Source of the DNA: Raillietiella orientalis
Lineage: Eukaryota
DNA: 40,420 nucleotides
Assembly: GCA_036172245.1 (NCBI GenBank)
Contig: JAYWIR010000005.1
Location: 6,200,001 to 6,240,420, forward strand
Reading direction: 5' to 3'
Positions 3,480 through 39,571 of this stretch are shown piece by piece (positions within the stretch are counted from its first letter, which is position 1; each line of letters begins with the position of its first letter). Position numbers and translations under genes: made by a program. Under the pieces are notes generated by a model, which did no database searches, was not told the DNA's origin, and worked only from the letters and a program-made list of their open reading frames with translations.

Positions 3480-4020
3480 TTTGAACCCGGTCGCTCCGGG
3501 ACGTTTATTCAGAGAGCAAACCACAAACTTGAGGGATATTATCCCCCCCAAGACACAAGAACGCCCATAGAAAAAGTTCAACACGGAAAACCACCGGCAC
3601 GCAGGCAAGCTTCAAAAAAGAAGGGAACGGAGGGAGGGGACACAAAATAAACAAAAAAAACAGGAGAGGGTGGGGACAGGGATCTTTGGTATCGTATGTT
3701 CCTCTTTTTCTAGAAGCGGCGCTTGACGATGGCGACTTCCCTGGCGACTTTTCTGGGAAGATGAGGCCACCTTGCAGCTGTCTCCATAAGGTTGGCGGCT
3801 ATCCTGGTGGCGTCCTTTCGCTGCGAACTCCCTGCGAGCTTACGGCGAGCCGTCGCGATGGCGCGGATGGTGTTGCCATCACAGCGCCCTTCCTCAGTCC
3901 GCCTTCGCTGAAGGAGCAGCAGGCTGATGGCAGTGTCCTGGGGACGACGGAGTGCCGAAGCAACTCTTTGCCATCACTCCCGCAAAACACTGCAGTCCAG
4001 AAGTAGGTGTGGAAGGATGC
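3480..4020 (-). mobile_element. L1/Tx1-type LINE 3' fragment (ORF2 zinc-finger tail + 3'UTR)
   Basis: Minus strand LPHLLLDC...AARWPHL; pyrimidine-rich UTR; ends AATAAACGTCCCGGAGCGACCGGGTTCAAA. Confidence 0.85.
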
Positions 4021-4057
4021 AAAGTTTTTTTCGAGTACGACGTACTCTAGGCTAGGT

Positions 4058-4429
4058 ACCGATTGACTACATAAAGTGCTGATCAAAGTTACTATAATAA
4101 TTGTTTATTTATTCCACATTAAATAAAATATTTTACGTTTTTCCCAAACAGATACTGTCTATTTAAAAATTATGCTTGTAATTCCAATGAAATCAATGAT
4201 TCATTCAGAGTTTTAAGATATCACAAGGATGAAAAGCAAAATAAATTCTATACGACACCGAGAAAACCCGCGAATAGTTAGTCGGTATAAATCGAATTTT
4301 GTTTGCTGTCGTCGCTAAGGTAACTATGGGAACGTAAGTGTATGCGTCCACCCCAAACATGGATGGTGTTAACTTATGTCGCGTGTATAAGGTAAAAACA
4401 TTTGCCAGGCGCATGTATGCGGCCATAGC
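4058..4429 (+). repeat. Left arm of AT-rich inverted repeat (partner 5694-5998); possible DNA-transposon TIR
   Basis: ACCGATTGACTACATAAAGTGCTGATCAAAGTTACT... aligns to the reverse complement of 5694-5998, with one non-aligning internal block. Confidence 0.85.
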
Positions 4430-4489
4430 ACTCAAAGGGTTAGAATGAGCACCTTTAAGAACCTCCGGATACAAAGAACAGCTTTTCGT

Positions 4490-5305
4490 CAAATCTCATG
4501 TCTTGAGAGGCGTTTGGAATTCTCCGTCTGAGAGCTTGGATGGAGGAGGAGACCATCGCTTTCAGAGCTGCCATGCCGCAGTAGCAGGTTGGAAGCCTCC
4601 CTGAATCTCTGTTCTTGAACTTCATCCTCTGACCGAGGCGCTCCCACCATCTTGGTCATAGTTCTCCCTCCCTGTCTCCTCCTTCCGGGATGGCACGTAG
4701 CCGAGTGGGAGTGCTTTCCTGGACTGCATGAGATGCGGACTGAAGCGATTCCTCACCTCTCTCCTCAGTATGAAGCTTTCCTGTCGGGATGGAAAGGGGT
4801 CGTTGCAGCTCTTCCGCACCCAACCGATACATCGCTTGACCCGGAGACGCTCTTCCTCTTCCCGCAACGGCTCTCCCAAGACTCAGTAACGGCGATGCTG
4901 TGCTACGTCCGTGACTGCTACTGCATTCATAAAGGCACTCGCGAAGGCAGGATGCTTGCCAGGAAGACTAGGAGGTTCTTCTGGTAACTGTCATGGTGAG
5001 AAGGTGGCAGCAGGTAGTCTCACCTCAGGCAAGCGACAGAGACGAACTCGCACGCGCATTCCGACGATTATTTAGAAGTGGTAGGAACTTGACTGCATAC
5101 ATCCTGATGACCTTCTTTCCTTCCTACATTAATCATATGCGCACTTTTTACATATTTATTGCCCTTTCCCTTTTGTCCACCCTGAACGGAGTTTTGCCTG
5201 GACGATTCGCCTGTCCGTGCATGCCGAGGCGATGCACCCTGCCCCCTCCCTCCCATCTGGATGCTCGCTGCTCTTCTTAACAAACGTCCTGGTGCAACGA
5301 GGTTC
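4490..5305 (+). mobile_element. Decayed L1/Tx1-type LINE 3' fragment between the inverted-repeat arms
   Basis: DCMRCG/TEAIPHL zinc-finger remnant (frameshifted), MLCYVR; ends AACAAACGTCCTGGTGCAACGAGG (degenerate family terminus). Left boundary approximate. Confidence 0.75.
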
Positions 5306-5693
5306 CGCATGGCGGCACGGTCCACGCGCGCCATCTCTACCCTCCTCAATCCATACCCTCCAGCCTCGAATGCGCAATGCCCATGGGGCTCTCCTCAGCT
5401 GCTCGTCTTCCGAAAGCATTCGGTTCCCGATTCCGATCCCGCGGAGTCCGTTGGGAATCCTGTTCTGGAGTCCTTGCCTTCTTTCGACCGCCGCGGATAA
5501 CTCCCGGGCCTGCACGTGTCTTCTTCTCCCGACGTGAAAGTTCGTTCTCTCCATGGGCTTCTTGAGGGAGGCTTGTGGCTGGCCCGTGGTCGTAGCCGCG
5601 TGGAATGTTGATCAATCATATGAAGCATCCATCATTACATTCTGAATATTCCTTATAGTATTTAATTCCGTTCGGCGAAAATTATCGGCGTGG

Positions 5694-5998
5694 GCTATGG
5701 ACTCATATGTGCATCTGGCAAATGTTTTCACCTTATACATGCGACATAAGTTGGCACTATCAATGTTTGAGATGGACACATCCATTTATGTTATTATAAT
5801 TACCTTAGCAACGACAGCAGACAAAATTCTATTTACATCGGCTGACTATTCGCAGTTTTTCTCGATGTCGTATAGAATTTATCATATTGTTTTTTATCTT
5901 TCTGATATTTTAAAAATGGCGAATAAGTTTAAAGAGATTCTTAATAAATAAACAATCATAACAGTAACTTTGATCAGCACTTTCTGTAGTCAATCGGT
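5694..5998 (-). repeat. Right arm of AT-rich inverted repeat (partner 4058-4429)
   Basis: Ends AGTAACTTTGATCAGCACTTTCTGTAGTCAATCGGT, the reverse complement of the left-arm start. Confidence 0.85.
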
Positions 5999-8900
5999 GG
6001 CATCTCTGACAGAGCGCGCGGTACGCGAAGAAGCACTCCGTCCACAGAGGTCGCAGCTGCCACTCGCGTGCCGTCAACACGGAACGTTTCAATCTGATGG
6101 GCTCCGCACCCAAAGGGTTAAACGAGTTGTCCACTTTTGAACAACGGCACTGCCTTCTGTATTACCAACAAGACCCACCTCACCATTCAGGGAGTCGTCG
6201 GAGAGGGAGCTGCGGGCATCATCGACCAGTATAATAGAATAAGCAGGTCAACCGATAGTCCATGACCACTGAGATGAGAAGTACACAAGTATCTTCTTTT
6301 GGTCACTACTCCGACTACGCACTTTATGAATCGATAACTCACCCGTTGAAGCTCTTCATGTTTCTGCAAACGGTAGATTCCGTGGAGTAGGCACCAATCC
6401 ATTCCAATCCAGCGGTGTCGTGACTGATGATGAAATAAGGATGAGTGGAATGAAGATCCTCATAAAGTCTGATGCTCACTAGCATGCCACTAGCACGATT
6501 GCGTGCAATCATGGTGGTGACACTCTTCTATAAGAGGCCAGGATCAGAGAGGATTCACACACACAGCTGTGGCCCATCCGGAGGCTGTTCGATACAGGTG
6601 CATCCGCACTGGACTTCAGCGTGCCTGGCCTGCAAGGGAAAGATTGGTGCTCCTCCAAGTGGGTCTCCTGCCCATCGGGAAAACTCAAGGCGAACGTCAT
6701 CATTCAAGAAAGAGCGTCTCTTCCTTGAATGATGCAGTCTCGTGCGAATCCGTGTTACGTGGACAGCTCCACACGCGATTGAGGGATGCAAAGGTGTGGA
6801 GATGTCGCCAATAAAACCGCAATGATGGAATGAAAGCTTTTCCGTATTCCCTTGCCAGTAGAATCAGAAAGGGTCGTAAGAAAGTTCTCGAGCGAGCACC
6901 AAGGGATGACAAGCGAGAGCAGGTTGTTCAATACTTGAGGCTCCGCAGCTCAGTGAAACAAAAGGTCTCCCTTCCTCTTCAACTGCTTTCTCTTTCTGCG
7001 CAATCCCATGAGTTCAGTCCAGGTGGCAATTAGACAGAGGACAGTAATGATACCAGGACGTTAGAGAACAGAGATGTTCAATATTTGCCTATTGAGAGAA
7101 AAAACTCAAATGTTTTAGATTGGAATTGGAAAAAGAGCGAGGATCATTAAGGAGAGACTAGCTATACTAGGACGATCCAATCTTCCTGATAATCTAGCAG
7201 AGATGAGTGAAATCTGTCTGAATTGCCATCGGAGTCCGCAATTTCTCAAACAGACCTTTGCTTCGACCGTTCCATGGGTCCTGACTCTACACCTCAAGGC
7301 TCACGAAACGCTTGTTCTCCTCATAACTGCCGAGTTGTTGACCTTACCCTTTCTATGCAGTTCGCCGCTCGTACTGTCAACAGGGTGATGCAGGCTTCAA
7401 GTCCTGCTGAGACATTCCTCGTCCACAGGAAATCCTCAAGAAGCGGGTAGATAATAACCTTGGACCAAGAACAGCAGCAGCAATATGTTACTGTTCTTGG
7501 TTCCTCTCACCCATGTACAAAGACTGAGCATTCCTTCTTCCGTAGATTTCTCTATGTTCTGTCAACCATAAGAATTGTCGACGTCTGCGGACATGCTCAG
7601 CGGCTCCGACTTGCAGTCATGGTATTTGAAATTCTTTGGTCTCAGTGACTGCGCATTTGGTTTTCTTCGAAGCAACCAAACTTCGATTCCCTTCGATTCA
7701 TCTCGATGTTTTCGACCACGGTTTCTGAATGAGGAAATTCCCCTTTCTCATTCATCGCTAATTCCTTAGCATAACTTCAAGGAGGTTTAAGGCAGTCTAC
7801 GACCAGCTGTTTATATTCAGTGGAATAGGCATTTTTTTCTTTTGTCTCCCTTATCGCCACCAGAATTTTGCTCCACCTCCTTTAACCGTTCGCTATCTCC
7901 TGATCTTTTTCTCGGATGTCGAAACCTTCTTAGATAGCTTGGAGAGCCTTGTTTCATTAACATTTGCAGTATCAGCTTCATCATCGTCCTGTGACTCTTG
8001 AGTCACAGTGTGCCAGGTCCATCTTTCCATTCTTTTCATGTACTTCTCCACTGATTTTCTCCAAAACCGTTGCTCTAAGACGATCTCAATCTGACAGTCA
8101 TCCACGAGAGCAAAGTATTAATTCAGCAGTCCGTCAAGTCTCTTAGTCTCCCGCAGAGGACCTTCTTATCCAATTGATGCTTGAAGGTTGCAATCACTAG
8201 CATCGGTCTGCTACGAAGTTCTGGGCGGTGTTCATCATTGCAATCCATTTGTTTATACGAGCTGGGTGTGGGGACCGCTTCAGATCTGTGCGTGGACCGA
8301 ACCTAATTCGTGGCGTTCATCCCATTCCTCATTTTCCACATCGCCGATTTCGGCCTCCATAACTGATGACCAGCCCGATGCTCAAAATTTTCATTTTTCT
8401 AATCTCCATCCACTGCATGCAAACGTGCTGAAATAGCTAGGAATACAAACCTACTAAAGTGTCAGTCTCAAGGGGGTACAAGACCATGGTTCAGTGGCAT
8501 CAAGTTGCAAGCATAATTATCAACGAGGAGTTCCCATTTTGTGGGATTGTGGAACATGGAAGTTTTGGTCACTATTAGAACCACGAATCTCCTTAAGAAT
8601 TTAACTTTCAATGCTACTTGATAGGAAATTTAACAAATTCATTACATACAAGCCAAATTCTGGTTGGTTCTCATTTAAGAGTTCGCACAGAAAGAAACGT
8701 TTCAAATTTATTTCGGGAGCATATCGGAAGTAATTGAGACCGCATTTTGAGGACAGCTGTCTAGACGTTAAAGACGCGAAGCGAAGAAGTACTTGCCTGC
8801 CTCTGGCTGCACCAATAGGTCACGGCGCTTTGAAACGGGGGGATTTGAATCAGTTCCGACTGCATTCAACCGTATCCATGTTCCTGGAGTGTCCTTAGTT

Positions 8901-11900
8901 TATTTAGCTTTGCACGATCTCCTGCAGTATCCAGCGAGCGTGCCTTTTCAGGCAAGCGTTTTTTGTACCGCTCGGGGCGTCGATCTTTTGGGACCTTTTG
9001 AAGTTGTTTCATTCACATCGGAACTTTAAGCATCGAGCTGGTCATCAGTTATGGAAGTCGAAATTGCTTTGCATCGCTTTCTGAGATCTCGGGTGCAGCA
9101 GCAGTTTTTACTGGTGCACTTTCCCTCTCTGGCTACACAGTACAATGGTGGTGATGTTTAGTAGCATATTTCAGGCTGCGGTAATAAATGTAGTAAAATA
9201 TGAGTTGAAAATCGCAGGTGACTAGTGCCCTTTGCTGTGATCAGGGATGGCAAAAGCCTTCTTCACGGTTCTCTTCCTTATGCGATTCGAACCAGTTATC
9301 CAACCCAGGTATTCCAGAAAGAGGAATGGCTGCTGGATGTGGATGTTGAACAAACCATCCTCAAGACAGCTTCCTGTCACCCACCTTGCATGTCCCGTAT
9401 GCTCGACAAGATCGATGAGCAGCTACCAAAGTCAGTTGGTATTCTCTAGTTGCGCACATCGAGATAAGAAACTACCCTTAAGATAACCAGGGTATCCATG
9501 TATCCACATGGTACTTATTTTGATGTCACACAAGGTGCTTGTTTCGCCTTTTTCGATTTCGTTTTGTATTGATATGTACATCACATGCTGAGGCATAAAG
9601 CAGATTCCAAACCAGGCTGGTTGCCGTTTTTCTTGCTGAGACGAACTACTTGAAAATGGAATGAGGAAGTGCCACACCTATCCAAAGGCTACATGAAAGC
9701 AGCGATGAAAGCGTATTGCAGGAAAAATCAATCCAGAATTTCGTCACAAGATTCATACTTATAGACAGCACAGGAAACAAAGCAGAAAACCAGAAAGTAG
9801 GAAATATCCAAGATCCGAATGGATTTGAGATACATGACTTAGTATGTGGAAGATTTCCTTGCTCTACACATGTATTTGTAGTGATGGACCAATTCCTGGA
9901 TAATTGGAGGTAAGTGGATGAATGTTATCATAATGGATAGCCAGGACTTATCGAATAGAAAAATTCCGAATGTATTTTCTTACTGATTTGGTTAGACCAG
10001 CGATCGTTTGGAAGTGGGTGTAAATTTGAAAGAGAAAACCGTTGCCTTGAATACCCCTGAGAAGATTCTTTGACTCCTTTTCAATAGTCCTCGCATATTT
10101 TTGACAAGATCAATAGTAGTTCTTCATCCATCCTTCTTCATTGGAAGTTATTACTATTGCGAATGGTTCTCATGATTAGAGCGACAACACTAATCACAAT
10201 ACCGGATATTTCATTTCAGAAAGCGATAGATTATTTCCGGTTCCGAACGTTCTGTCGATGGAAAGAATGTAGTTCGATCACAACTTTCATTCACGTGAAA
10301 CTTCCACCTTTGCTGAATCTGATGCGGAGCAACTGGCAAAGCACAGCGAGTCTCGCTGGCTCCTGCCAATCTGTGAGATGAAATTCCACACAGCAGCACA
10401 GACTCCCACCACGCAGGATGGGAGATTGCAGGTTGAAGTGTTCGGCATCCGTACCATTAGCGCTCTTCTCAAGACACGTGAGCCTTGATTTCGTCTTCCT
10501 ATCGCATCCGACAAGCTTTCGTTTATGCATCTCTATCATCTCTATAGATTCTCATGTTTCCTTTTCATAAGGTATGATCCGTAAAGTGCCATCTACTTTA
10601 CAAATCATGTACTTCTTTCGACTTTGCCTCTCCTGCGATTGTGTGTCTGAATGGCACAATAATTTCCTAATTTTCGTCTTCAGCTGGAATCAACTCGCTG
10701 TTTTTTCTATGAATTTATTCTTGTAAAGTGACTGAATAAAGCTCGGAACCTTCAAAGAATAAAACTCTTATGCTGAGTTGTTTGAAGTTTTAGGACTCCG
10801 AGCACCTAATTGTCCATTCGTAGGATTTTTCCAATTATTGCCTCTCACATCTTATGCAAAAATTATTGGAAATCAGAACCATGCAGCGGTGAAAATTCAG
10901 AAGAAATGTGATAGAAAGGTCGGACAGCTCCATTAATTCATGAAGCATCTTTTACTTCTATCCGAATCTATTTATGTTCGTAATCTCAGTGAGAAGATCT
11001 GTTATCTCATCTCTGACGTCTCTGTCATTGCTGAACAATGCTTGCAACAGGTTGATTGAAAGATCATTTGAACTCTCATGCATATTTGAGGTCATTTGTA
11101 TGGACTATGTTTAGAGAATGTATACAATGTCATGTTAGTTAAATTACAGCAATCAGTTTTCAAGTTCATTCTGCCTCATGATTAATTTTATTCTGAATCC
11201 CTTTCATCAAGGATGAAAAGTTACTTTGCAGTTGTTTAGCAAACGAAACTGGGAAACCTGGTAACATCGTATTCTTGCAAATCAGGGATGGCGGCGCCAA
11301 GAACAGTCCGAGATGAAAATGCGTTTCAGGTGGGAAGTGCTACATGGCAGCTAAGCTCAGGGGTTGTATAAGGATTGCAGAAAAAAGGAAAGAAAGAAAG
11401 GAAAAAAAGAGGACTCATGAAACTACACCCATTTCACTGAAGTAGCATACATTTCCCAAAGTAAGAGACTATGCATAATTGAAAAAATGCTTTCTGTACT
11501 TAAATAAATTTACTTTGAAGAAATTTGAACTTAATTTTTTTTAAATAATACGGAAGTGCTCTTGAAGGTCGAGGTTGATGGTTTTGCGTGACCGAAAGGT
11601 AATAGAAAGAGATTATGTATCAGAGTAAGAGTATGCATCAAAATTTGCTTGAAACATGCAAATTGTGGTAATCTAGTTTTTCCAAATTAACTGATGCTCC
11701 AATTTTGTCCCAAGAATGGATCCCTTGTGTTGAAATCAATGCTTAACAAAGTGGTATTTTTTATAGTTAACCTATTGGTTTGTGAAGTCATTAAACAAAA
11801 AGCCTGTGTTGTCTTGCATAGCAAGAAAGAGAATTTAAGTAGTAACAGGATAAACTGACCTGAGCAAGTACGTCCTTCAAATATATGTATGAAAGCTTTC

Positions 11901-12652
11901 AAGTGAACATAAATTGAAGTTCATATAATGTTCTGCTATAAATAGATAGGTTTATTTATTGCTTCAGGATCTTTTACTGTTTATTTCTTCACCTTGTTTA
12001 ATTAAGTGTTTGAGTTTTTGCTGTTAATTTCTTTTTGTGATGCTTTACAGTTGCATATGTGACTTGAAACTTTCAATAGCTATATGTAAGTATTGCTCAG
12101 TATGAGCAATGGCTTACTCAGGTGTGGTGTTTCAATTCTTGAAGTACCTACTTCAAATTAGTATTGCAAAACTAGTGTATGAACTCTATTTTACAAACAT
12201 GAGGTCGCTAATCTGGAGCATCTCGTAAAATTGGAAAATTTTTCATTTTGGCTCAAGAAGGATGAATGTGGCCTCATGGTTTATCGAGGACACTCAGGGT
12301 AGTGATTGAAAGCTCTGCATCTCCTGTCCTGAGCAACCAGCGAATACCTATATGGAGAAAGGAGGAAGGGCTACCTGGGATTGGTGAAGATGGCCGATGA
12401 ATTGGCCACGTTCATTAGGGACAACTGTCTTCAATTACTCGGCTCCCCGGACAATGAGGTCAAGAAGTTGGGCCAGAAGATGCTTCAAGAGGTGTCTGAA
12501 TGAGATTCCTCGAGCCATCATCAGATGGGGATCTCGGAGAACTTATGACGATTACTTCCTCTGGAAAATTCCCGAAACGCAGCAGGGTCATCGAGAGCTT
12601 GGGGTCAAAAGACAGAAAGGCTTCGAGGAGAGCAAGTGTACTGGAATTTCAG

Positions 12653-13075
12653 TTTTCACACCCAGGTGCGCCGGGGCGTGTATTATAAAAATAATAAACA
12701 ATCTTGTGTGGGGCCATCAGTCCTACAACGTGCTAAAATGTTCTTGAATATTCGGGATCTGCCGAGGAACCGGACCGCAGGCCGGCGATGTTCGCCTCGG
12801 CAGCAGAGGGGGAAGGGACAAACAAAAAGGAAAAAATAAAGAAGACACTATTTACAAAAAATGGGAGGGCTAGAGAAGGGATCGCTGTCTGCTGGAGGGC
12901 GTCCTTTGCATCCTTTGCAGGATGCCGCCAAGTTTTACCCGAGTATGCCCCAGGTGGGGCCGTCTTGCCGTCGTCCGCAGGAAGCGCAGGGCGAAGCAGA
13001 TGGCGTCCCCATCGCGCCATCCTCTTCTCGTGTAGCTCGAGGCCGCCACAACCCCACGTAGGCAGCAAAGAGCTT
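12653..13075 (-). mobile_element. 5'-truncated L1/Tx1-type insertion, antisense within the Utopia-like element
   Basis: ALCCLRGVVAA...PHLG tail; end AATACACGCCCCGGCGCACCTGGGTGTGAAAA; degenerate TSD GGAATTTCAG/GGAAGTTCAC; the Utopia-like reading resumes on the right. Confidence 0.85.
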
Positions 13076-13580
13076 CTAGGGGGAAGTTCACTGGTAGAGA
13101 GCCCAGCACAACAGTCGACGGCGTCAAATTCAGTAGCAATATGAGAAGAAAACTGACCTTTGGCTGAAAGCATACACGGAGAGAGCACACTTGGCAATCC
13201 CTCGTAGAAAAGCAGCCCAGTCAGGCGAGGGACACGCAGTATGTGGGTATGCACCACGCTCCAAGCATCTTCCTTACAAATGGAGAGTACCTGAGGTTCC
13301 AGGATTAGAACTTAATCCACGCGAATCGGCTGAATCTCCTTCCGACCGGGGCTGCAACTAGGTGGAAAGAAGCGAATTGCACATGTCGGTGCTGCCAGGT
13401 ACGGGACGAGACATTGCTTCCTGTCGTAAATCACTGCAAGAGGCGCCATCTCCTGCTCACTGCGCAACACGACACGATTCTAGGAATGATGAGGATGGCT
13501 ACGGTAGCTGGGCGAAGTGGACCCTGGTGTCAATACTCCTGAGAGCTTTAGGAGTAGACACCCCCTTGTGACCAGACCTA

Positions 13581-13688
13581 ATACTTACCTGGTTTCGAGG
13601 CGATCATGGTCGGCATGGAGATCCCTCCAGAGTGAGGCTCGATCATTGCACTGCGGTTGGGCCGATCTCTGTGATAACCCCAAACGTG
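13581..13688 (+). pseudogene. U1: 3'-truncated U1 snRNA copy (nt 1 to ~108)
   Basis: Starts ATACTTACCTGG; stem I GAGG-GATC/GATC-CCTC; stem II CAGAG..GGCTCGATC-ATTGCACTGC-GGTTGGGCC..CTCTG with the U1A loop; ends in the SL III loop CAAACGTG. No stem IV. Confidence 0.9.
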
Positions 13689-14479
13689 AAGATTAATCGC
13701 ATAATAATTCTGGACGTCTGCGGTCCGTTCGAGGGTGGAAGGAGGTGTTCAGCACAGCCAGGAGAAGCAAGGTGAGAAAACACGAAGAGGCCCTCCGTCT
13801 AAACAATGAAGGGAAGCAGTGCAGGGTGCGTGCTTAGGTCCACCAGGAGCCTGGGATGCAGAAAACCAAGAGCTGCTGTACGATCCTGGTATCCCCAGGA
13901 AACGCTCGGAGAGCATGAGGCACCGTAAGGTGACCCCGTGCATTCGATACTCTAGGGGCATCTATGCGACACACATCAAAGGTAGAATACCGAAGGAAAC
14001 CGAAATCTACTTGCAGCCCGGAAAAGCCAGTGAACTTGAATTGGAGAACGTGATGCTGAAAACAGCAGAATGAGGGTCAATAAGCACCGCAGATGGATAA
14101 CTCAAGAAGAACAAAGGTTCCATGTCCTTCTCTAAGTGCCCCCGCAGCTCCGCGCACAGTCCGCTCGTATGGACTCATTCGCGCGATCTAGCAAGGCTAC
14201 CACCTGCGCGCAATCGCACTCCGTGTAAGGAAGTAGCGTACTTTGTACGGGATGTGCCCGTCTGTCTTCGAAAGGTACGTCTGACGTTGCGAGCCGTGGG
14301 TCCGAGGATGCAGATGGGATTCCACGAAGGCGGGATGTGCGTGCTGCCCGGATTCAACTTCCACAGGATTTTGCAAGAGAAAAACGTTCAGCTGGACCGC
14401 ATAAGTGAACGCTATCCAACCTGCCGCTGATTTGTCGAAATTTCTTTGAAAGCAGTGTACCGAATGAAGGAAAAACAAC

Positions 14480-15241
14480 TCCTTGCATACTTCTAGCTAG
14501 AAGAGTCGACATGACCTTGTGTTGGAAGATTTTGCACTCTCTGATGTTGCATGGGATCGAAGGACAAACCTGTGCAAGAGGCGCAGCCACCATACTTTTA
14601 GGGGTTAGGTAGCGCTGGCTCAAAGTGTAGTGCTGTCTCAATTTGCCTGTGGCAATCTGCGGATAGCCGGCGGCTGAAGACAACGTGCTACTGTGCGTGC
14701 TGATTAGAAGCAGCTCGTGGGGAAAAGCACATTTAGTTAGAAGGTAAGGAAAGATTTCCGTTTCATCGCAAGCTGCACAACGGGCATCCACACTCCCAAG
14801 CGTCTATTCAAAAAACGCGTTCTCGGCGTAGAATTCCTCAACGGCAGAAAGGCAGCTCAGCCCTCTGCCACTCCTAGGTGACGGTGTCTCTCTTTGTCCC
14901 AACACGCTGAGGGACACTTCGTCTCCTCCGGTAGTTGAATTTTCTTCAGCTTCTCCTGCACTACATTCTTCGGCATTCGAAGCCTGATTCCCATGAGGTG
15001 GACCGGTACGGGGTGGTCCTCCGTCAGGGCGAAGCTCTAGCGCCAATCCATCGAAATTATGGTATTCGGCCTAAGCTGGGCCAGAATTGCATCCTTGCAA
15101 GTGAGCTCAGTGCATCGTCCTTCCCACAGGATAGAGGGACCTTCCAGGTGTTGCTCGTTAACGTTCATCTTCTTCAGCTCTCTCCCTAAGAAGCGCGCAG
15201 TGTTACTTACGAGAAGACCACCTACCTTGTAAATCAAGGAA
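14480..15241 (-). mobile_element. Old L1/Tx1-type remnant: ORF1 piece (15241-14930) joined to the ORF2 zinc finger
   Basis: SLIYKVGG...ELTCKDAILAQ...VPVHLMGI (ORF1 homolog); VDARCAACDETEIFPYLLTKC (zinc finger). Boundaries approximate. Confidence 0.7.
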
Positions 15242-15390
15242 GCTCTACGCCCGTCTCTTTTCCAGAAATGCGGCCATTCATCGACTGGATGAATACAAAG
15301 CCAGGGCTGAGACGCAGGCTTGACAATCCGAGTCTTTTAGTTTGCTGGACACCGAGGACCAAGGGCACTCGTCCACACTGGCATGCTCCG
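15242..15390 (+). mobile_element. L1/Tx1-type ORF2 fragment (APE-RT linker)
   Basis: LYARLFSRNAAIHRLDEYKARAETQA*QSES aligns to LYARRYARTPNVRRLAEYRAGAERQVWQSG of the 35-37 kb ORF2. Confidence 0.8.
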
Positions 15391-15539
15391 CGAAAGACGG
15401 CGACGCAATATTCAGGGTAGGTGCCCGGCAGATGAAAAAGCGCAGGCGATCGTATCCCAGTGCGAAAGCCACCCTGAATCCAGGTGCTGCGTAGGCGAAA
15501 GCCTTCGAGGACAGGAAAAACCTCACAGGAGCTAGACTC

Positions 15540-16010
15540 CCGAGGAATAGTCTATAGTTTCAACGGAGAAGGAATGCCGGCGTCCATGGGCAGCAACGCG
15601 ATGGCCATGTCGCAAATCGAAACCAGTAGCACTTGACTCCATTCTCCTTGCCTTTGAACTTCTCCCTCTTGGAGGAGGTCCACCAATGCTCTCACAAGGT
15701 GGTGAGAGACAACGAAAGGAAGCAAACTGTGCTGGAGGACAGACTCCTTACTCTCAAGGGGAGTAACCGTTATGCTGTAACACAGGTAGTCGAGAGAGCG
15801 GGGAAGTACGAGTTGAGGAATCACTTGGGTGGGATCGGAAGGGTCATCCTCAAATGGTCTTGCTATACAGAGCTTGCGATGACGGACCTGTATGTGCAAA
15901 CATACAACATGTCCTCGCGAGTCTTTCTTTCGACGCTGAAGAAAGCTGAGCAAAACCTTCGTGGACCACGGACGACTCAACTTGTAGCGAAAGATTTCAA
16001 CTCTTCCGGT
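15540..16010 (+). mobile_element. Decayed APE endonuclease remnant
   Basis: LLEEVH, IGRVILKWS, TDLYV and QLVAKDFN correspond to LLQEIH, IGQLILRWS, TNVYAP and LIAGDFN. Confidence 0.75.
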
Positions 16011-16399
16011 GATTCCACAAGCAGCGAAGTGATGGACCCTGGTCGTCATCATCCTCTCCGAAATGCTGTCTGCCCTGAGCGAAAGAGACGACGAGTAGCC
16101 TACCGGCGAGGTGGGAGCTTTCCAGCTACTTCCCAATGGGAGTTTGCTTTTTTCACGGGAAAAAGCAACCTCCTTGGCACCTGAACGACAGTCGGGTTGC
16201 AGAATGCTGGTACTCCACGAGCACTAGCGAGAGGACTCCTACGGTGATGTGAACTATAGGGTGTTGCTCCCGAAGTACCAGTGGTCTCACTAAACTGCAT
16301 GAATGATTCAGTGTTACTGCTCATGAGAAATGCTGACGTGCTGCTTTTCATCTGAGCGGTAACACTAAACGATTCTTCCATCTCTTAATCGTTCTCAGA

Positions 16400-17250
16400 G
16401 CGACCCCTGCCTCGTAACGAAGATCCACCCAATTCGTTGCCCATGCGACAGGACGGAATTTCCAACATACTCGCAGAACAGTCTTTTATTACGAGCATGC
16501 ATCAGCTGCCATTTGAGGGATCGAGCGTCAAATCTCGTTTCCGTGGTTTCTGCTAGCAAGGAAATCTTCCCGTGTTCGGATGCCCAGCCCAGTGTTCTTC
16601 TGTTCTCCTGTGCAGTACCGAGCAGTTTACCGCAAGAAGAAGAGAGCATTGCGCGGGCAAAGGCTCATGTTGTGCCCTCAACGCTTCGCGCGCAAGCGAA
16701 TCGGATGGCCACAAGCACTCGAGGAAATCGCGTGACTCCTCAACGAACGTGCCTCGAGCTAGATGCAGAATGTATGGCTCGAGCGCATCGCCGTTTGACG
16801 TCTCGCAGGAGAGAGGACGTTGGCCAGCGGGAGAGGTCCACCCGCCAAGAGTGTTCTTCCTGGTGGAATGCTGCCCGAACTGTGAGCAGGCAAGAGTGGA
16901 CGCCCAGTGGAAGTGGCAGGACGTTACCAGCCAAAAGGCACTCAACCGGAGGGTGTTGCAGGGTCAAGTACATCCTGACGACCGCCAGCAGCTGCCGGGG
17001 AGGGTCGAGCTGTCGCAACTTCCGCCGCCGTCGGAGGATGCTCAACGCGCAGAAGACATCGGCCTTGGTTGAGTTCGAAGCCGCCGCCTGACGGCGGCCG
17101 TCAGCAGTTTCGACTTGCTTGTCAGCGCGGAATCAAGCTCGCCAGCTGACTCTCAGCATGAGGAGAGCGCCCCAAGATCTGGGAAGACGAAAGCCCGGAG
17201 CAGAAGAATCGTGCGGTTCTTCCGCAGGCCGATGGGATGCATTCCGTCAG
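16400..17250 (-). mobile_element. Heavily decayed RT of a different LINE clade (I/R1/Jockey-like)
   Basis: Ordered weak motifs PIGLRKNRT (Q-GFR), KLRQLDPPRQLLAVVRMYL, TVRA/IPPG (GVPQG), LGWASEHG..ETT; frameshifted. Confidence 0.45.
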
Positions 17251-17289
17251 TTACGGACAGCTCTGGCCGTATAAATTCCCTGCTGATTG

Positions 17290-19168
17290 GTTTACTTGGA
17301 TTGCATCCCCGGCTGTTGCTACAGGTTTGACTGGTTGGCTTGGGTGCTGAGGACGTACAGGCTGACTCTGGCCAACCTGCCGAGCTCCTGCCCGGGAACA
17401 CCGGAAGAGGCCGCCTACATACTTCTGTTGCTGCCCATGTTCACCCAGGCGTCCAGGCTCGAGGACTTCCTCGAGCTCATTCGTCGGAGGGCGGGCCTGT
17501 GCGTCAACAGGACGAAATCAACCGTTGTACCGGTTGGCTCTACGTGGGAGGGGCAGTCCGACTGGATCCGCCTGGGGATCCCCACGGGCAGGTGCTTTAA
17601 GTACCTTGGCGTTCCCTTGGGCGCCTTCTGTCCATCAGAAGCGTGGTCGGACTGCCTTCACAAGGCCGAGACTGCTCTGGGCCCGTTCCAAGGCGGCAGG
17701 TTCCTCCTGTCGGAACGGGCCTTCCTGTGGAACATTTTCGTTGCCCCTCTCCTCCGTCATCTCTTTTTTGTTGGTCCCGCTGCCTGCTCGGCTAAGCGTC
17801 GGGCGCAACGCCTGTTGCGAAACGCCTTGTGGGGACCGGCGAGGTCTAGGATACGCCTCAAGGACTTGGCGGCTCCTCGGCGGGATGCAGGATTGGGCAT
17901 CCTGACTCTGGAGCGGATCGGACTGCTAGTGCAGTTCCGCACTTTGCGCCCAGCTATGGACTACTCCCTGGTGTGCTCCAGCGCGGCTGCTGCTGCGGCG
18001 CTGCACGGGTGGCGACGGACTGCGTTCGTTGCACCTGCTCACGGGGTGCGCCCAGAGAGGATTCGGCTTCCCACTAAAGCAGCTCTCCTCGCTTCTGGGA
18101 AAGCATGCGTGGATCTCCTGCCGGCCGACGAACTTCAACGCCTGGAGGCAGGAAGCCTTATCGTCCTGGGCAGCGCAACAGGATGTGTCCCGTTTGGAAC
18201 TCCGTTGCGTGAACCTTTCCCCATACTGTCCAGTGGAAGAGGTGCTTGAAGACCAGGACCGGTGGACACGCCTAGCCGCTACGCCCCTCGCCGAAGCACT
18301 GTGTGCACTGATGGTGCGAGATGACAGTGACCTGCCGGCGAGGTGGGAGGTCGCTTGCGAAATCGCAGGCGAAACCCGACTGCTGGGCGGCTGGAGGACT
18401 TGCGAGCTGGCAGACGCTGCCACGCCTCGCTTTCGTGCCAAGGGACTTTTCCGGTGGAGCGAGCTCCTCGGGGTGCCCACCGAAGAACTTGTGGTCCCTT
18501 ATGCGTGCTTGGACGCGACTGTGTTCCCCCTTCGGTAAAAACAGGACGCTTTTCTGCTGATGCATTGGGGTTTGTACTGCAACCAGCGCGCGCACCTGGT
18601 TTCCGGGGGAGCTGCGTCCCCGAACTGCGGAGCGGTGGAATCGCTTCCGCATTTGCTATTTGAATGCGGTGCCCTCCAGGAGCTGTGGCGGCGGCTGTCT
18701 TCAGCGCTCCTGCATCCCGGACACACCGCAAAGGACTGGATGGGCCGCTTCTTCACGCGTGACGGTCTTTCTCTTGGAGCGGTCGTCGCAATCGTCTGCT
18801 GCGTCCGCGCCATTGTCAGGGCCCGCCAAGTACTACAGATGCGAACGATCCCAACATCGGTCCCCGACACTGCAGCCTGCAACCTGGAAATGGCTGCCGG
18901 GTGGCCACATCTTGGAGCGGAAGTGAGGACGGAGATCGGCGGCATTCACCGCCGGTTCTGAGAATAGGAACGCTTAAACTGCATACCCCTGTCCCCGCCC
19001 TCCTTCCCAGTTTATTTATTTATTTTCTCCTCCCCCCCCGTTCCGAACTCTCAGTGTGCCCTGCCTGCGTGCCGGGAACCCTCCTCCCCATCTTCTGTTC
19101 CCCTTACCTGGGAACACAGTTCCCAGAAGACATTATTAATAAACGTCCCGGCGCAACCGGGTAATAAA
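17290..19168 (+). mobile_element. L1/Tx1-type element C: 3' half of ORF2 + 3'UTR
   Basis: VNRTKS, FKYLGVPL, APRRDAGLG, CGAVESLPHLLFEC; terminus AATAAACGTCCCGGCGCAACCGGGTAATAAA. Confidence 0.92.
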
Positions 19169-20299: not shown

Positions 20300-22407
20300 G
20301 CATAAAGCGTTCGACAGCGTCTACCAGAATCTGCTGCTGGAGCTTCTGAAACGCTTGGGCTTTCCGGTTTCATTGTAGGCCTATCTGCGCTCCAGCTGGC
20401 GCGACGCGCTGATCAATCTTTCTTTCAGCGGGCAGACCGTGCACGGCGTGCCGGTGCGGCGTGGGATACGGCAGGGAGACAGCCTGAGTCCCTTGCTCTT
20501 CAGTACCTACTTTGAGTTAGTACTGAGAGCGTACAGGGAAACTCTGGCGCACCTGCCGCACGACTGCGCCGGTACGCCTGCGGTTTCAGCGTACGCGGAC
20601 GACCTTCTGCTGCTGCTCCCTATGTTTACCCCGGCTTCGGCGGTAGAGGAGTTCTTCGACCTCCAGAATCGAGGAACCGGACTTACGGTGAACAGGGCGA
20701 AGTCGTCCGTAATGCCAGTTGGTGCGGCGTGGGCAGGCAGCAGGACTGGGTCCGTTTGGGGATCCCCACGGTGAGGTACTTCAAGTACCTTGGTGTGCCA
20801 TTGGGGAACTACTCCCCTGCGGAAGCGTGGTCCGGCTGCCTCCAGAAAGTAGAGATGGCGATCGGCCCGTTCCGAGGCGGTAGGTTTCTCCTGCCTTAAC
20901 AGGCCGCGGTTTGGTACACGTTCGCGGATCCTCTCCTCCGCTCCCTGCTTTTTGTTTGTCCCCCCACAGAGAGGATAAAAAAGCGGACGAAGGACCTCCT
21001 CCGTATCGCGCTTTGGGGCAACGGGAGGGCCCGAGTCCGCTTAAAGGACTTGTGCGCTCCGCGTCGGGACGGTGGTCTCGGTCTCCTGACATTGGAGCGG
21101 CTGGAGCTTCAGCTCCAGTTCCGAATGTTGACACTTGTTCCGGAGTTGTGGTGCACCTGTTGGTGCGTCCCTGCACGTCTCTTTCTCCAGCAAGCCACCG
21201 GCAAGACGGGACTCACGTCCTTTCTAGCACTCCGTCGCCGCGTTAACCGATGCGGATTCCAGCTACGGAGGGTGGCTGCGCTGAAAAGGAAAAATCAAGG
21301 ATGGATCACCTGTCGCCCCGCGAACGGTAGTGCCTGGTTGCAGGAAACCGTTCTCACGTGGGGAGAGTTTGGCATGCTACGCTTCCAACAGGAACGACGG
21401 TTCCTTTTTGGGGGTTACAGAAGTTGCACGCTTCTTGAGATCCTGGAGGATCCAAAGAAGAGAGCGTGGGCAGGAAGAACCCCCCTCGCTGCTGCGCTGG
21501 ACTCCCTCATGGAAGATCAGGACAGCGATGGTGCGGCGAAGTGGAAGGTTAACATGTTAATCTCCGGGAAGGAGAAGAAGATAGGAGAGTGAAAGACGGG
21601 TCAGCTGACTGACGCTGCCACCCCGAGTGCGCCTCCACATGGACTTCTGCGCTGGAACGCGCTGCTCGACGTTCCCATTGAACGTCTGAAGTGGCCCCCG
21701 GTACTAATGAACACCTCCGCCCTCCCCTTAAAATGACAGGAGTCGGCTCTCCTGTTGCAGCACTGGGGACTCCCCTGCAACGCCCGCCGACACCACTGGT
21801 CCTGGGGAGCGGTGGATCCCAATTGTGTTAGGTGTGGGGAACGGGAATCCCTCCCCCACCTGCTTGTGGATTGTGTTGCCCTTCGTCCCTTTGGTTCCGC
21901 TTTGCCGCGGCCATCGGAATCCCCTGCGGCAACCTCAGGGACGCTCTGAAAGCCCTCTTCGTTGCCGACGCCCTTCGGCCAGCGGCCTCGTTAGCAGCTC
22001 TGTGCTGCCTACGCGGGATCGTCGCCGCCCGGAGCAAGGCTACGGGAGGACCACACGACCAGGGTGCCATCCAGCCAGCCTCCTAATTCTTGAGGAGAGC
22101 ATCGCGATGGCCCCACCTGGATCCAAGCATCAGCAAGGGCTTGCCGACATCCTAAAAAGGATGCAAAGGCCCCAGCAGCAACTGTGATCCCTTCCCGTAC
22201 CCTCCCAGTTTTTCTTTTCTTTTTGTTTTGTTTTGTTTTTTTTTCCTTCTTCCCCCAGCTGCCGTGGTGGACCGTACCGGTCTGCGAACCAGTGACCCGG
22301 CAGGCTCTGTGTTTCTTCGTGCGTGGCTGGAGCAATGGTCCAGCCACTGCACGTCTTTTTTAAAGTTTATTGTTTCAGTAAACGCCCCGGCGAAATCCGG
22401 GTGAAAA
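20300..22407 (+). mobile_element. L1/Tx1-type element B ('GAAAT-loop' subfamily): RT from HKAFDSV to the 3' end
   Basis: HKAFDSV, RGIRQGDSLSPLLF, AYADD, KYLGVP, CVRCGERESLPHLLVDC; end AGTAAACGCCCCGGCGAAATCCGGGTGAAAA. Confidence 0.95.
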
Positions 22408-30789: not shown

Positions 30790-32148
30790 TTTTCACCCGG
30801 ATTTCGTCATAGCGTTTATTTAAAAATAAACTTTAACAAAGACGTCATTAGTAGGAGCATTGCTCCAGCCACGCAAGAAGAAACACAGAGTCTTCCGGAA
30901 CACCGGTTGTAAGACCGGTACGGCCCACCACAGCCAAAGAAGGGAAAGGGGAAGAGCAAAAAAAAATAAACAAAAAAAAAATAAAGAGTGGGAGGGTACG
31001 AGAAGGCATTAATGTTGCTGCTGGGCCGTTGCATCCTTCCCAGAATGCCGGCAATCTCTTCTTGTGTTCGCGGATCCAGGTGAGGCCATCGCGACGCCCT
31101 CCTTAAAAATTGGGGGTCGCCATGGATGGCACTCTGGTCGCGTGGACCTCCCATAGCCTTGCTCCAGGCGGCGACGATCCCGCGAAGGCAGCAGAAGGCT
31201 GCTATCGAGGCCGCTGTCCGAAGGGCGTCAAAAACGAAGATAGTTTTGAATGAGTTCCTGGGGTTGCCGCAGAAGATTCCGATTGCCGCGGCAAAGCGGA
31301 ACCAAAGAGGCCGAAGGGCAACACAAACCACAAGTTGATGGGGGAGGGACTCCCGTTCCCCACACCTTACACATTTGGGGTCCACCGCTCCCCAGGACCA
31401 GTGGTGTCGGCGGGAGTTGCAGGGGAGTCCCTCAGTGCTGCAGCAGAAGAGCCGACTCCTGCCATTTCAAGGGGAGGGTGCAAGTGTTCATGAGCACCTG
31501 GGGCTACTTCTGATGTTCAATAAGAACGTCGAGCAGCGCACTACAGCGCAAAATTCCATTGGGAGCGTACTCGGGATCGCAGCGTCTGTTACCTGGCCCG
31601 TCTTCCTCTCTTCATGCTTCTTCTCCTTACCGGAGGTTATCATTTCAACCTCCCACTTCGCCGCAACATCGCTGTACAGATCTTCCATCGTAGTTGGCAA
31701 CGCAGCAGCAAGGGGGGTTCTTCCTGCCCACGCTCTCTTCTTCGGATCCTCCAGGATCTCTCGGCGCGTGCAACTTTTGTAGCACCCAAACAGGAACCCT
31801 CGTTCCTGTTAAGCGCGATGCATGCCGCACTGTGCCTACGTGCGAACGGTTTCCTACAACCTGGCACTACCGTTAGCGGGGCGACAGGTGATCCATCCTT
31901 GATTTTTCCGAACCAAGGCAGCCAAGCTCCGCAGCTGGAGCTCACATCGGTTGATGCGGGAGCGATGGAGTGATAGGAAGGAAATAAGTCCCGTATTTTC
32001 GGGGGCTTCCTTGACAAGGAGACGTGTAGGAACGCTCCAGCAGGTGCACCACAACTCCGGCACAACGAACAACATCCGGTACTGGGGCTGAAGATCCAGC
32101 CGCTCCAATGTCAGGGGGCCGAGACCGCTGTCCCGACGCGGAGCGCAC
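30790..32148 (-). mobile_element. L1/Tx1-type element I ('GAAAT-loop' subfamily), 3' part
   Basis: Collinear with B (LCAPRRDSGLG, KNQGWITCRPANG, CVRCGERESLPH); end AATAAACGCTATGACGAAATCCGGGTGAAAA. Confidence 0.92.
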
Positions 32149-37697: not shown

Positions 37698-37792
37698 TTA
37701 CGTAAGGACGTGTTTTTCCTCCGCTCCCGAGTGAGTCGACAGGAAGCGGTTTTTTCTGTGTGTTTTTTTGTGTGGAACATCGTTGGTGTCCG

Positions 37793-39571
37793 ATGGCAGC
37801 GATGCCTGAGGACACCACGATGGAGGTAGGTGTAGGGGAGGCTTGCCATCCCCCACAGCCTACAGAATCAGGGGCGTCCGCCCCGGAATCGCCTTTGCCG
37901 CTCAAGGCGAGGAGCTGGAGCGCCATGGTGGCCGCGCCGAGCGCGGAAACCATGGCCGAGATGGCAGCCTACCGGGCAGCTGGGTAAAAGCCCAGTCTGG
38001 TATACCAGGTAAGCAATCTCTTCGACGGGCGAACTGCACGCGCTTTTTCGAAGGCGCTGCAGAACGCCAACGTATAAGAGAAGGATCTTGACGGTCTATC
38101 CGTGCTGAGCGGGGGTCAGCGCGTCGAGGTTCTCTGCTAGGACATCACCTTGGCGCAAATCTTGATTACTACCCTGCTGAACGTGGAAGGACGCAAGATC
38201 CTGCCAGTCACGATGGACCGCTCCGTAGTGGTCCATCTGACTGGCATCACCAGCCGCATGACGCGGTCTGCGGTTGGTGATCAACTGCGAAAATACGGAG
38301 AAGTTCACGCGCTATGGCCAAAGGCCACAATCTTCGATGGCTACGATAGCCTTTTCGGAGGCCAGGCTGCAGCGCGTGTCACTGTCAATGAGGGTGCTGG
38401 GTTGCCCCACAAACTGGAGATCGCGAAGGAATCCGTCGACCTCTGGTACGTGGAAAAACCCCGCTATTGGTATGCTGGCAAGCCACGGTATTGCGGCTAC
38501 TGCGATGCGGTCGGACACATCCGTAAGAGGTGCCCGAACATCGTATGCTACTTGTGCGGGGAGAAGGGACACGTCCGTCGCGTGTGCCCTAAACGCCCCA
38601 CCCCAATTTCCTCGGCCGCCAAAAAGGCGCAAGCGAAAAGCGCGGGGAAACAAAAATTAGAAAACCGTGAAACTGGCCGAGAAAAGCTGCCAATAACCCA
38701 AGCTCCAAGCGCGGCATCGGAGAAAAATCTTCCCGAAACCGCAGAGGGTGAACAGGGCTGGCAGCTAGTCAAAGCCAAAAAAGAAAAAAAGGACAAGCAT
38801 GTCCCGAAGAAAGGAGAGAAGGCGGCGGCCGGAACAAAAGCTCAATCCGTGTCGCGCGTAAAAACTCTCCGAGAATGCACGGTCACGCAGGAACGCATTG
38901 ACGTTCCCGCCGACACCACCGGAGGCGATACGGCTTCGATCGATTTTCCCGCCGCGACGAATGCGCGCGAAAACCCACCCCCCGTTTGCGAAGAGGGTCA
39001 GCCGGACGACAAAATCGCCGAAACCAAGGACGCAGCCTTCGAGAAGGCCGCCGAGGAGCTTGCGGCAACGCTTGCCGAACGCGAGAACCCCTCGCGAAAA
39101 AGGTTGCGTAGGCCGGCAGCGGCTAAAGTGGCCCCCGCAGGTGAGTCGGACCGGGAGGCCGGAAGTGCATCCTTCTCTGCGGAAGCACCACCAAGGAAAG
39201 CGGGGCGAAAATCCCAGAAACCCCGAAGGTGCATTGCGCCTCCGCGCGAGGGGGATCCAATGGTGGAGGAACCAGTGGATGGCAGCGTGGGAGCCCAAGT
39301 CGGACATCACCCACGTGCGGAAGCCGACGAGGAGGCGACTCCAATGGAGGAGGGTAACCAGGGGTCAGCAATGCCCTCTGAAACCGCCGAACCTGAACCA
39401 CCCGCACCAATGGATGTGGGCCAACAGGTACGAACAACACCCCCTTCGCACGGGCAGCCGGAGACGTCGGCACGAAAGAAGGATGGGGAGTTGGTGGGCA
39501 AGACGCCAACCCCGTCCAGCGACCCGCCCCAAAAGGTGGCGGGAGCTCCACCGCCAAGTTCCCAGGAATAA
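37793..39571 (+). pseudogene. ORF1 gag-like protein with two CCHC knuckles; three in-frame stops in the N-terminal part
   Basis: CGYCDAVGHIRKRC and CYLCGEKGHVRRVC; track ORFs 37760-37987 and 38150-39571 are in the same frame. Confidence 0.9.

Follow-up and report, generated by a model that had tools for sequence, protein, structure and literature searches.

The insertion and its reading

How does the 5' part of a U1 small nuclear RNA (snRNA) come to lie inside the nuclease domain of a retrotransposon, with the same domain continuing on its far side? The question is raised by a locus in the arthropod Raillietiella orientalis (GenBank assembly GCA_036172245.1, contig JAYWIR010000005.1, positions 6,200,001 to 6,240,420 of the forward strand; these 40,420 nucleotides [nt] are the window, and all positions below are counted from its first letter). 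Here a U1-like stretch stands between the PD and D motifs of the restriction-like endonuclease (RLE) of a decayed element. Both partners can be identified, they occur in the order RLE, U1, RLE, the insert measures 93 to 99 nt with a further 9 to 15 bases shared between insert and element, and the 3' half of U1 is absent. The first-pass annotation of this DNA had reconstructed a U1 fragment in the RLE active site, and that reconstruction is the best fit to what follows. In our reading, to which we give a probability of roughly 60%, the first 102 to 108 nt of U1 lie between the two motifs of a dead element and were copied from U1 RNA rather than from a U1 gene.

Identity and extent of the U1 piece

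The U1-related features are as follows.

13581 to 13688, plus strand: the whole U1-like stretch, made up of the 5' arm, stem-loops I and II, and the 5' arm and loop of stem-loop III (RF00003, 62.1 bits; the match to the consensus continues to the GUG at 13686 to 13688)
13590 to 13682 (93 nt), plus strand: the core insert, which can only be U1, with 31 codons and no stop (excess over relatives, 92 to 110 nt)

That the U1 5' end is present at 13581, as had been proposed, is borne out in two ways. The U1 12-mer ATACTTACCTGG begins at this position, preceded by ...GTGACCAGACCTA, and occurs once in the 40,420 bases, where 0.04 occurrences are expected and 4 of 100 shuffles contain at least one match. 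The Rfam U1 model (RF00003), run on 13540 to 13682 alone, matches 13581 to 13682 over model positions 1 to 103 with 62.1 bits (E = 1.2e-15). In the Rfam alignment, the 5' arm and stem-loops I and II are aligned with posterior marks that are mostly '*', and the loop of stem-loop II, CAUUGCAC, is conserved. Rfam at its gathering thresholds reports zero RNA families in the whole window; at permissive thresholds U1 is the only credible match and the sole one in the whole window at E ≤ 0.1. The minimum-free-energy fold of 13581 to 13745 is no better than that of shuffles (z = 0.83) and is uninformative either way.

The likeness starts precisely at the first base of the U1 transcript, both in the Rfam alignment and in a contig of X1, the sole DNA sequencing run found (share 0.05; no RNA run was found). 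This contig of 265 nt, the only one from X1 on the U1 part, shows 6 differences over its match to 13581 to 13645, where it ends, and has no likeness to the window in the 200 bases upstream. Within 13600 to 13625, the loop of stem-loop I deviates from the Rfam consensus, the loop of stem-loop II (CAUUGCAC) is intact, and the X1 contig differs at 13612 to 13613.

The 3' limit of the likeness bears on a first alternative, in which an inserted full-length U1 gene or pseudogene of 162 nt (13581 to 13742) took the place of the RLE's second catalytic motif. At permissive thresholds RF00003 does align from 13581 to 13742 over model positions 1 to 166 (65.8 bits, E = 3.5e-16), with CAUAAU, UU.UGG and the UUCG loop at the expected places. 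This score lies under the gathering cut-off of 69.5 bits, which we take as the mark of a full-length U1 gene. Moreover, the last 60 nt, up to 13742, contribute only about 3.7 bits (truncated and full alignments are scored slightly differently), so the 3' arm of stem-loop III, helix H, the Sm site and stem-loop IV are not recognized as parts of U1. In this 3' half, the alignment lacks helix H, stem-loop IV has several broken or non-standard pairs, and posteriors fall to 3 to 6. Searched alone, 13683 to 13800 gave no U1 match at E ≤ 10, in a test run without a genuine U1 3' half as a positive control. The extra DNA is thus, as judged from the covariance model, the 5' part of U1, with the U1 3' half absent. 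What the bases past 13688 encode instead is seen from the flanks.

An RLE domain on both sides of the U1 piece

An exhaustive HMMER search of 1.84 billion proteins with frame 1 of 13309 to 13539 recovered 18 proteins at E ≤ 1e-3 (best, 1.5e-5); the two named matches among them come from a wasp, Trichogramma brassicae, and a sea spider, Pycnogonum litorale. Three of the relatives, P0006, P0008 and P0009 (934 to 1,024 amino acids), carry the RVT_1 domain and share a C-terminal domain with a C..C..H..C zinc finger, RH(N/D), RPDL(V/I), (I/V)(I/V)DVxxPFE, K..KY and G.LG.W. The best matches of P0009 among solved structures are R2 retrotransposon proteins (9nl2, 9nl3 and 9dou; E of about 1e-57), with which both its reverse transcriptase (RT) and its nuclease domain align (RKPDL...VVDVTVRFE in the solved proteins against RRPDI...IIVDVAVPFE), and R2 is the only RLE clade among the solved matches listed for P0009. 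Because the relatives carry RVT_1 and share this C-terminal domain, and because P0009 best matches R2 proteins, we assign the family to the RLE-bearing retrotransposons without long terminal repeats (LTRs).

We then turned the C-terminal domains of 12 relatives into a profile, leaving out six of the 18 in which the domain was cut or garbled (P0005, P0007, P0010, P0013, P0015 and P0017), and searched it against all 1583 six-frame pieces of the window. The blocks recovered, together with the two junction motifs, are listed in order.

13315 to 13503, plus strand: zinc finger C..C..H..C and RH(D) block, frame 1 (profile positions 7 to 70, 61.5 bits, E = 7e-18; expected, since this frame found the relatives)
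13572 to 13589, plus strand: PDLILT, the first catalytic motif (PD), the last 9 nt of which (13581 to 13589, ATACTTACC) are also U1 nt 1 to 9 and form the left microhomology (relatives, RPDL(V/I)(I/V/L))
13683 to 13688, plus strand: AACGTG (codons N V), which fits both the loop of U1 stem-loop III and the element, a possible right microhomology (the profile aligns NVKI from 13683)
13686 to 13742, plus strand: second catalytic motif VKINRIIILDVCGPFEGGR, frame 0 (profile positions 95 to 117, 5.6 bits; E = 0.0034 among 6 local plus-strand frames)
13739 to 13813, plus strand: K..K(H/Y) block, frame 2 (profile positions 117 to 142, 3.3 bits; E = 0.018 among 6 local frames; weak alone, collinear)
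13819 to 13986, plus strand: C-terminal RLE block, frame 1 (profile positions 147 to 202, 25.8 bits, E = 6.6e-7 over the 1583 pieces; independent of the query)

These plus-strand matches are collinear and lie on both sides of the U1 piece. The zinc finger and the RH(N/D) motif precede the nuclease core (C, C, H, C and HD are in place), followed by the PD and D motifs and the later K..KY block, which we take from the R2 literature to be the catalytic residues. PDL stands at 13572, LDV at 13710 and K..KH near 13775, in a series broken up by the U1 piece, a stop and frameshifts. Residues 859 to 900 of P0009 match 13626 to 13739 in tblastn, and 13695 to 13742 encodes IIILDVCGPFEGG, to which IIIVDVAVPFENGG corresponds in P0009, so that Rfam misreads 13686 to 13742 as an Sm site and stem-loop IV. 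On this protein evidence, we regard the flanks as the RLE domain of an RLE-bearing non-LTR retrotransposon (R2/NeSL-like). An RLE had already been named in the first-pass annotation; the 18 relatives, the collinear profile match and the R2 proteins as the best solved matches of P0009 support it.

Other searches were silent at this locus. Pfam, run on 113 stop-to-stop frames, found no family between 11690 and 20221 and thus no RVT_1 there. Likewise, phmmer with the frames 13309 to 13539, 13810 to 14070 and 13572 to 13772 returned 0 matches at E ≤ 10 among solved structures. A word-indexed search of longer proteins only found nothing with the same three frames (31, 22 and 1 candidates, respectively), which is weak evidence.

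The protein blocks also bear on the case of the full-length U1. The bases that it would assign to the 3' half of the snRNA are those that encode IIILDVCGPFEGG, against IIIVDVAVPFENGG in P0009, and removal of 13581 to 13742 kills the profile match, and the RLE blocks would then abut with 23 profile positions missing. We consider an inserted full-length U1 very unlikely. A longer U1 copy had been named in the first-pass annotation as the finding that would speak against its reading; when checked, the Rfam extension to 13742 proved to be an over-extension into RLE coding sequence. For annotation in general, a covariance model can extend a truncated snRNA match over coding sequence and so report a near-full-length pseudogene.

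Size of the insert and its junctions

The size of the insert follows from the spacing of the motifs in the relatives, which have the pattern RPDL(V/I)x..(I/V)(I/V)DVxxPFE. From RH(N/D) to the second D there are 46 to 52 residues in 12 of 12 relatives, against 248 nt (82.67 codons) here, an excess of 92 to 110 nt. Counted from the D of PD, the second D lies 13 to 15 residues further on in the 12 relatives and 138 nt (46 codons) further on here, which gives an insert of 93 to 99 nt (this spacing was read from the alignment and the RH-to-D totals, as the automated PD anchor failed for 9 of the 12). Removal of the 93 nt from 13590 to 13682, by which the first-pass annotation had expected to restore the typical spacing of the family, indeed leaves 15 residues between PD and D, equal to relative P0012. 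As the U1-like run is 108 nt long and the insert 93 to 99 nt, 9 to 15 of the 15 ambiguous junction bases (ATACTTACC and AACGTG) belong to the element, provided that there was no deletion.

Excisions were also made in silico, and 126 variants were scored against the profile; the informative ones are as follows.

No excision, 0 nt: 5.6 bits
Excision of 13590 to 13682, as first proposed, 93 nt: 10.9 bits
Excision of 13590 to 13688, 99 nt: 13.8 bits, the best of the 126 variants
Excision of 13581 to 13688, 108 nt: 8.2 bits
Excision of 13581 to 13742, 162 nt: profile match gone

Score differences of 3 bits leave the junctions unfixed to the base; they do favor ATACTTACC as element sequence and leave AACGTG undecided. 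The 9-mer encodes I L T, and the relatives have V/I and then I/V/L after PDL. The right-hand AACGTG is the weaker overlap of the two, because the profile slightly prefers the 99-nt excision (13.8 bits) to the 93-nt one (10.9 bits). The proposed dual microhomology is supported on the left, where ATACTT(ACC) encodes the hydrophobic pair that the relatives have after PDL, and is weakened on the right. With both microhomologies kept, the reconstructed empty site would read ...CCAGACCTAATACTTACCAACGTGAAG... In the Rfam consensus structure, U1 positions 1 to 11 are unpaired and 13681 to 13687 is the loop of stem-loop III, where the right junction had been placed; both junctions accordingly fall in single-stranded RNA. 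The insert has no poly(A) and no duplication, and the spacing in the relatives leaves no room for a target-site duplication.

The same junctions have to be weighed against an event at the level of DNA. The template of the U1 piece might have been the DNA of a U1 gene, of a U1 pseudogene or of the U1 head of a long interspersed nuclear element (LINE), reached by a template switch at microhomologies in the course of replication or of the repair of a break. Alternatively, a U1 fragment might have been captured at a break with a small deletion, the microhomologies being partly accidental. Junction bases are inherently ambiguous, and the 93-, 99- and 102-nt excisions differ by only about 3 bits in profile score, both of which suit such an event. 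The left edge does not suit it: the likeness sets in precisely at U1 nt 1, and no flank from the promoter side accompanies it, which run-off from an RNA explains and a DNA template does not. Nor does the spacing of the relatives, which demands 9 to 15 shared bases unless a deletion of exactly that size occurred, or the fit of the IL encoded by ATACTT to the PDL(V/I)(I/V/L) of the family. We hold a DNA-level origin to be rather unlikely.

An assembly artefact, in the form of a chimeric join of a U1 copy and a repeat, may be considered here too. The region is rich in repeats, and the X1 contigs give the junctions no independent read support: over 12300 to 14300 they showed no joints, with no cover of 13372 to 13572 or 13707 to 14300. 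A single protein domain, however, runs through the two flanks with order and register kept, and the insert has a boundary at either end. A mis-join would not come back to this element at the neighboring base. An artefact is extremely improbable.

A proposed copying slip

We infer that U1 RNA, and not a U1 gene, was the template of the U1 piece; an RT jump or RNA-templated repair is plausible but unproven as the mechanism. The event was most likely a one-off slip of reverse-transcriptase copying and not a working feature, that is, a single-copy accident produced by known processes. In the sequence of steps that we propose, the 3' end of a minus strand, with the complement of AACGTG as its last bases, would anneal in the single-stranded loop of U1 stem-loop III. 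This primer could be either the nascent cDNA that target-primed reverse transcription makes of the element or a chromosomal strand that had broken and that U1 RNA bridged, two sources that a single copy cannot separate. A reverse transcriptase would then extend it up to the very 5' end of the U1 RNA, and the run-off end, the complement of ATACTTACC, would re-anneal with the identical 9-mer beside the point of departure, where synthesis or ligation would resume. The outcome would be a clean insertion with neither duplication nor poly(A), followed by the decay of the copy. If U1 RNA was the template, the host U1 would not be expected to continue past ..CCCCAAACGTG with the stretch AAGATTAATCGCATAATAATTCTGGACGTC.

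Several points weigh against this account. Only one copy is seen, so both microhomologies rest on spacing and not on direct observation, and an insertion of 102 to 108 nt with a matching deletion of 9 to 15 nt would look identical. The letters CATAAT..TTCTGG..GTC after 13688 lie near the expected U1 Sm site, and Rfam aligns the stretch; they may be there by chance, or may represent an extended imperfect homology that favored the jump. The two tests that bear on the U1 3' half (13683 to 13800 and 13540 to 13682) were made without a genuine 3' half as a positive control, and the match to the second motif, at 5.6 bits, is weak alone (E = 0.95 over the 1583 pieces). The jump studied by Bibillo and Eickbush is reportedly, by the title of their paper, an end-to-end one, from which an internal return to the same template differs. 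Finally, the boundary at U1 nt 1 is equally expected if the source was the RNA of a U1-headed LINE.

Two other origins were considered and rejected. An inserted U1-headed LINE was discarded as the source of the U1 here, as RLE sequence resumes directly past the U1 piece. A U1 gene hit by a U1-targeting element was discarded as well: U1 is contiguous through nt 22/23 and lies inside the open reading frame (ORF) of another element.

The host copy and the open frame through the insert

The element that carries the insert has the following further features.

12309 to 14073, plus strand: decayed, 5'-truncated RLE-type (R2/NeSL-like) element with post-RT region, zinc finger, RLE and an ORF stop at 14071 to 14073 (tblastn and profile)
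12654 to 13083, no strand assigned: foreign interspersed repeat (about 430 nt) within the element, separate from the U1 event (P0010 residue 635 and then 633, no residues lost)
13569 to 13571, plus strand: TGA where the relatives have the R of RPD (PL*PDL in the window, LRPDL in the relatives, by alignment)

In tblastn, residues 549 to 596 of P0008 match 12309 to 12452 (E = 4e-4), residues 528 to 635 of P0010 match 12333 to 12653 (E = 2e-5) and residues 633 to 775 of P0010 match 13084 to 13515 (E = 3.5e-15); the C-terminal frame of the element ends at 14070. The copy is truncated near 12309, and only post-RT residues of the relatives align, so that an RT upstream of the nuclease is not found in it. 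Its reading frame shifts three times across the nuclease domain. The foreign repeat is covered over 12759 to 13038 by at least six X1 contigs with 80 to 90% likeness and flanks unlike the window, which marks it as an interspersed multicopy repeat; no tandem or inverted structure was found in it. With its 5' truncation past the RT, TGA stop, frameshifts and foreign repeat, the host copy is, to judge by its coding sequence, a dead pseudogene. Upstream, from 4000 to 12300, the G+C content is 34 to 51% (with the minimum at 11 to 12 kb), with no long frames and no family matches, and it climbs sharply at about 12300, exactly at the start of the truncated RLE element.

Frame 0 is open from 13572 to 13772, over 67 codons that comprise PDLILT, the 31 U1-encoded codons and then NVKINRIIILDVCGPFEGG. 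This confirms the in-frame insert of 31 codons without a stop on which the first-pass annotation had remarked, but its host copy is a pseudogene and the state of the frame is therefore without functional weight. By our arithmetic, the chance of an in-frame insert without a stop is about 0.07 (1/3 for a multiple of three, times about 0.2 for 31 stop-free codons). The U1 insert has no function; a loop of 31 residues between PD and D would split the active site and should disable the nuclease.

The open frame is nevertheless what might be expected if the U1-bearing form were a variant of the family, which arose in a master copy that was transcribed and was later amplified into a lineage, either non-autonomous or trans-mobilized, since the insert leaves the frame open over its 31 codons. 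An open frame of such size has the chance of about 0.07 given above, and the loop should leave the nuclease disabled. Nor was any second copy seen: the U1-encoded peptide had 1 word-sharing candidate among longer proteins and none scoring at E ≤ 10, the left junction had 0 matches in a scan of metagenome contigs (as had an arthropod-type U1 pattern in another), and no X1 contig runs across either junction, though the cover is thin. An amplified variant is quite improbable.

Other elements in the window

Most of the region from 16 to 40 kb looks like stacked retrotransposon debris with 54 to 64% G+C. Its recognizable parts are as follows.

16369 to 18958, plus strand, and 35495 to 37867, minus strand: two copies of one LINE family, both of which terminate in a C..CG..E(S/T)LP..L..C zinc motif
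21737 to 21946, plus strand, and 30819 to 31466, minus strand: two further frames with the same zinc motif, here C.RCGERESLPH.L..C (profile E of 1e-3 and 0.09, respectively)
38141 to 40419, plus strand: a 476-codon frame with a CCHC zinc knuckle, overlapped by an Exo_endo_phos (AP-type endonuclease) frame that runs off the end of the window

The minus-strand copy of the LINE family has an open frame of 791 codons with RVT_1 (E = 2e-22), and the plus-strand copy has long runs of residues in common with it, split over several frames. The frames at 21737 to 21946 and 30819 to 31466 are probably C-terminal remnants of further LINE copies, and 38141 to 40419 resembles the 5' half of a LINE that has ORF1 and ORF2 and is seemingly intact.

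Significance and comparison with known systems

If our reading is correct, the locus records an RT that left its template, copied an abundant nuclear RNA over about 100 nt as far as the capped end and came back to the adjacent base, with both joins readable. It would be a natural example of an excursion and return, whereas the published chimeras that we found show one-way switches that end the insertion. In the collection of open-access papers to which our search was confined, we found no description of an snRNA fragment within a retrotransposon ORF between two halves of the same element. For host function the event is without consequence: this copy is dead, and its nuclease would be disabled by the insert. 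A broader proposition, that the retroelement RTs of this arthropod genome habitually switch to U1 snRNA as a template and that this locus keeps a raw product with both junctions legible, seems improbable to us; in its stronger form, the U1-bearing form would itself be transcribed and amplified.

Among known RLE elements, the host can be compared with Utopia, to which the first-pass annotation had likened its PD-to-D spacing. Utopia are U2 snRNA gene-targeting elements of the NeSL clade with one ORF that encodes an RT, a zinc finger and a C-terminal RLE, reported from arthropods including a crustacean and wasps (PMC4640811). The ORF layout of the relatives found here is the same, and one of them comes from a wasp. 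The locus differs from Utopia in that it has no U2 flank and that the solved relatives of the full-length members are R2 proteins only. We found no U2 match in 13743 to 16500 (E ≤ 1) or in the whole window (E ≤ 0.1), the 3' end of the element not having been located; many copies of some Utopia families are themselves described in the same text as lacking a U2 flank (PMC4640811). As for the 28S site of R2, no rRNA match was found in the window, a check that can miss short flanks.

U1 also becomes part of a retroelement in the snRNA-headed retroposons, such as SINEU (PMC4494074) and the U1- and U2-headed Tx1 LINEs. There U1 is the 5' head of an amplified family, whereas at this locus it lies internally, within a single dead copy from an unrelated clade. 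Mammalian snRNA retropseudogenes with truncated 3' ends (class II and III U1, U2 and U3, from the literature of the early 1980s) have flanking direct repeats. They resemble the piece described here in their complete 5' end, missing 3' part and absence of gene flank, which point to an RNA intermediate, and differ from it in the direct repeats, for which the spacing here leaves no room.

End-to-end jumps of the R2 RT between templates are said to have been studied in vitro by Bibillo and Eickbush in 2004. The R2 polymerase's capacity to jump from template to template, described as unusual (PMC2718515, citing Bibillo and Eickbush 2004), and microhomology at R1 and R2 5' junctions (PMC2718515) have been noted. 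The common ground is an RLE-clade RT that continues its cDNA on a second template past a 5' end, with microhomology or nontemplated bases at the joins; in contrast to end-to-end jumps, the first switch and the return would here take place at internal sites of the element RNA, and the acting enzyme is a proposal only. In RNA-guided break repair, the two ends of a break can be bridged, and their joining directed, by an RNA with complementarity to both (PMC11390984), and U1 could likewise bridge the minus strand by means of nt 1 to 9 and the loop of stem-loop III. The process described there uses the gene's own transcript and is independent of DNA synthesis (PMC11390984), whereas here 93 nt would have to be copied from a foreign RNA.

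A further parallel lies in the chimeric retrocopies made by LINE RTs. Double template switches in LINE reverse transcription have been described (PMC2104539), as have chimeras of U6, U3 and 28S with L1 made by switching or RNA ligation (PMC11838501); the products are bipartite (U6/L1, U3/L1 and 28S/L1) or, by double jumps, tripartite (PMC2104539; PMC11838501; PMC4476161). These share with our locus a 5'-complete small nuclear RNA in sense orientation that is joined sharply to retrotransposon sequence, and the tripartite forms invoke two switches. In those cases, however, the cellular RNA is the 5' end of the insertion and is followed by a 5'-truncated LINE, with target-site duplications around the whole and non-element DNA upstream. 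At the present locus, the earlier part of the RLE comes upstream of the U1 piece; the same element stands on both sides in register, the snRNA is cut on its 3' side in a loop, there is no duplication, and the host is of the RLE type and not L1.

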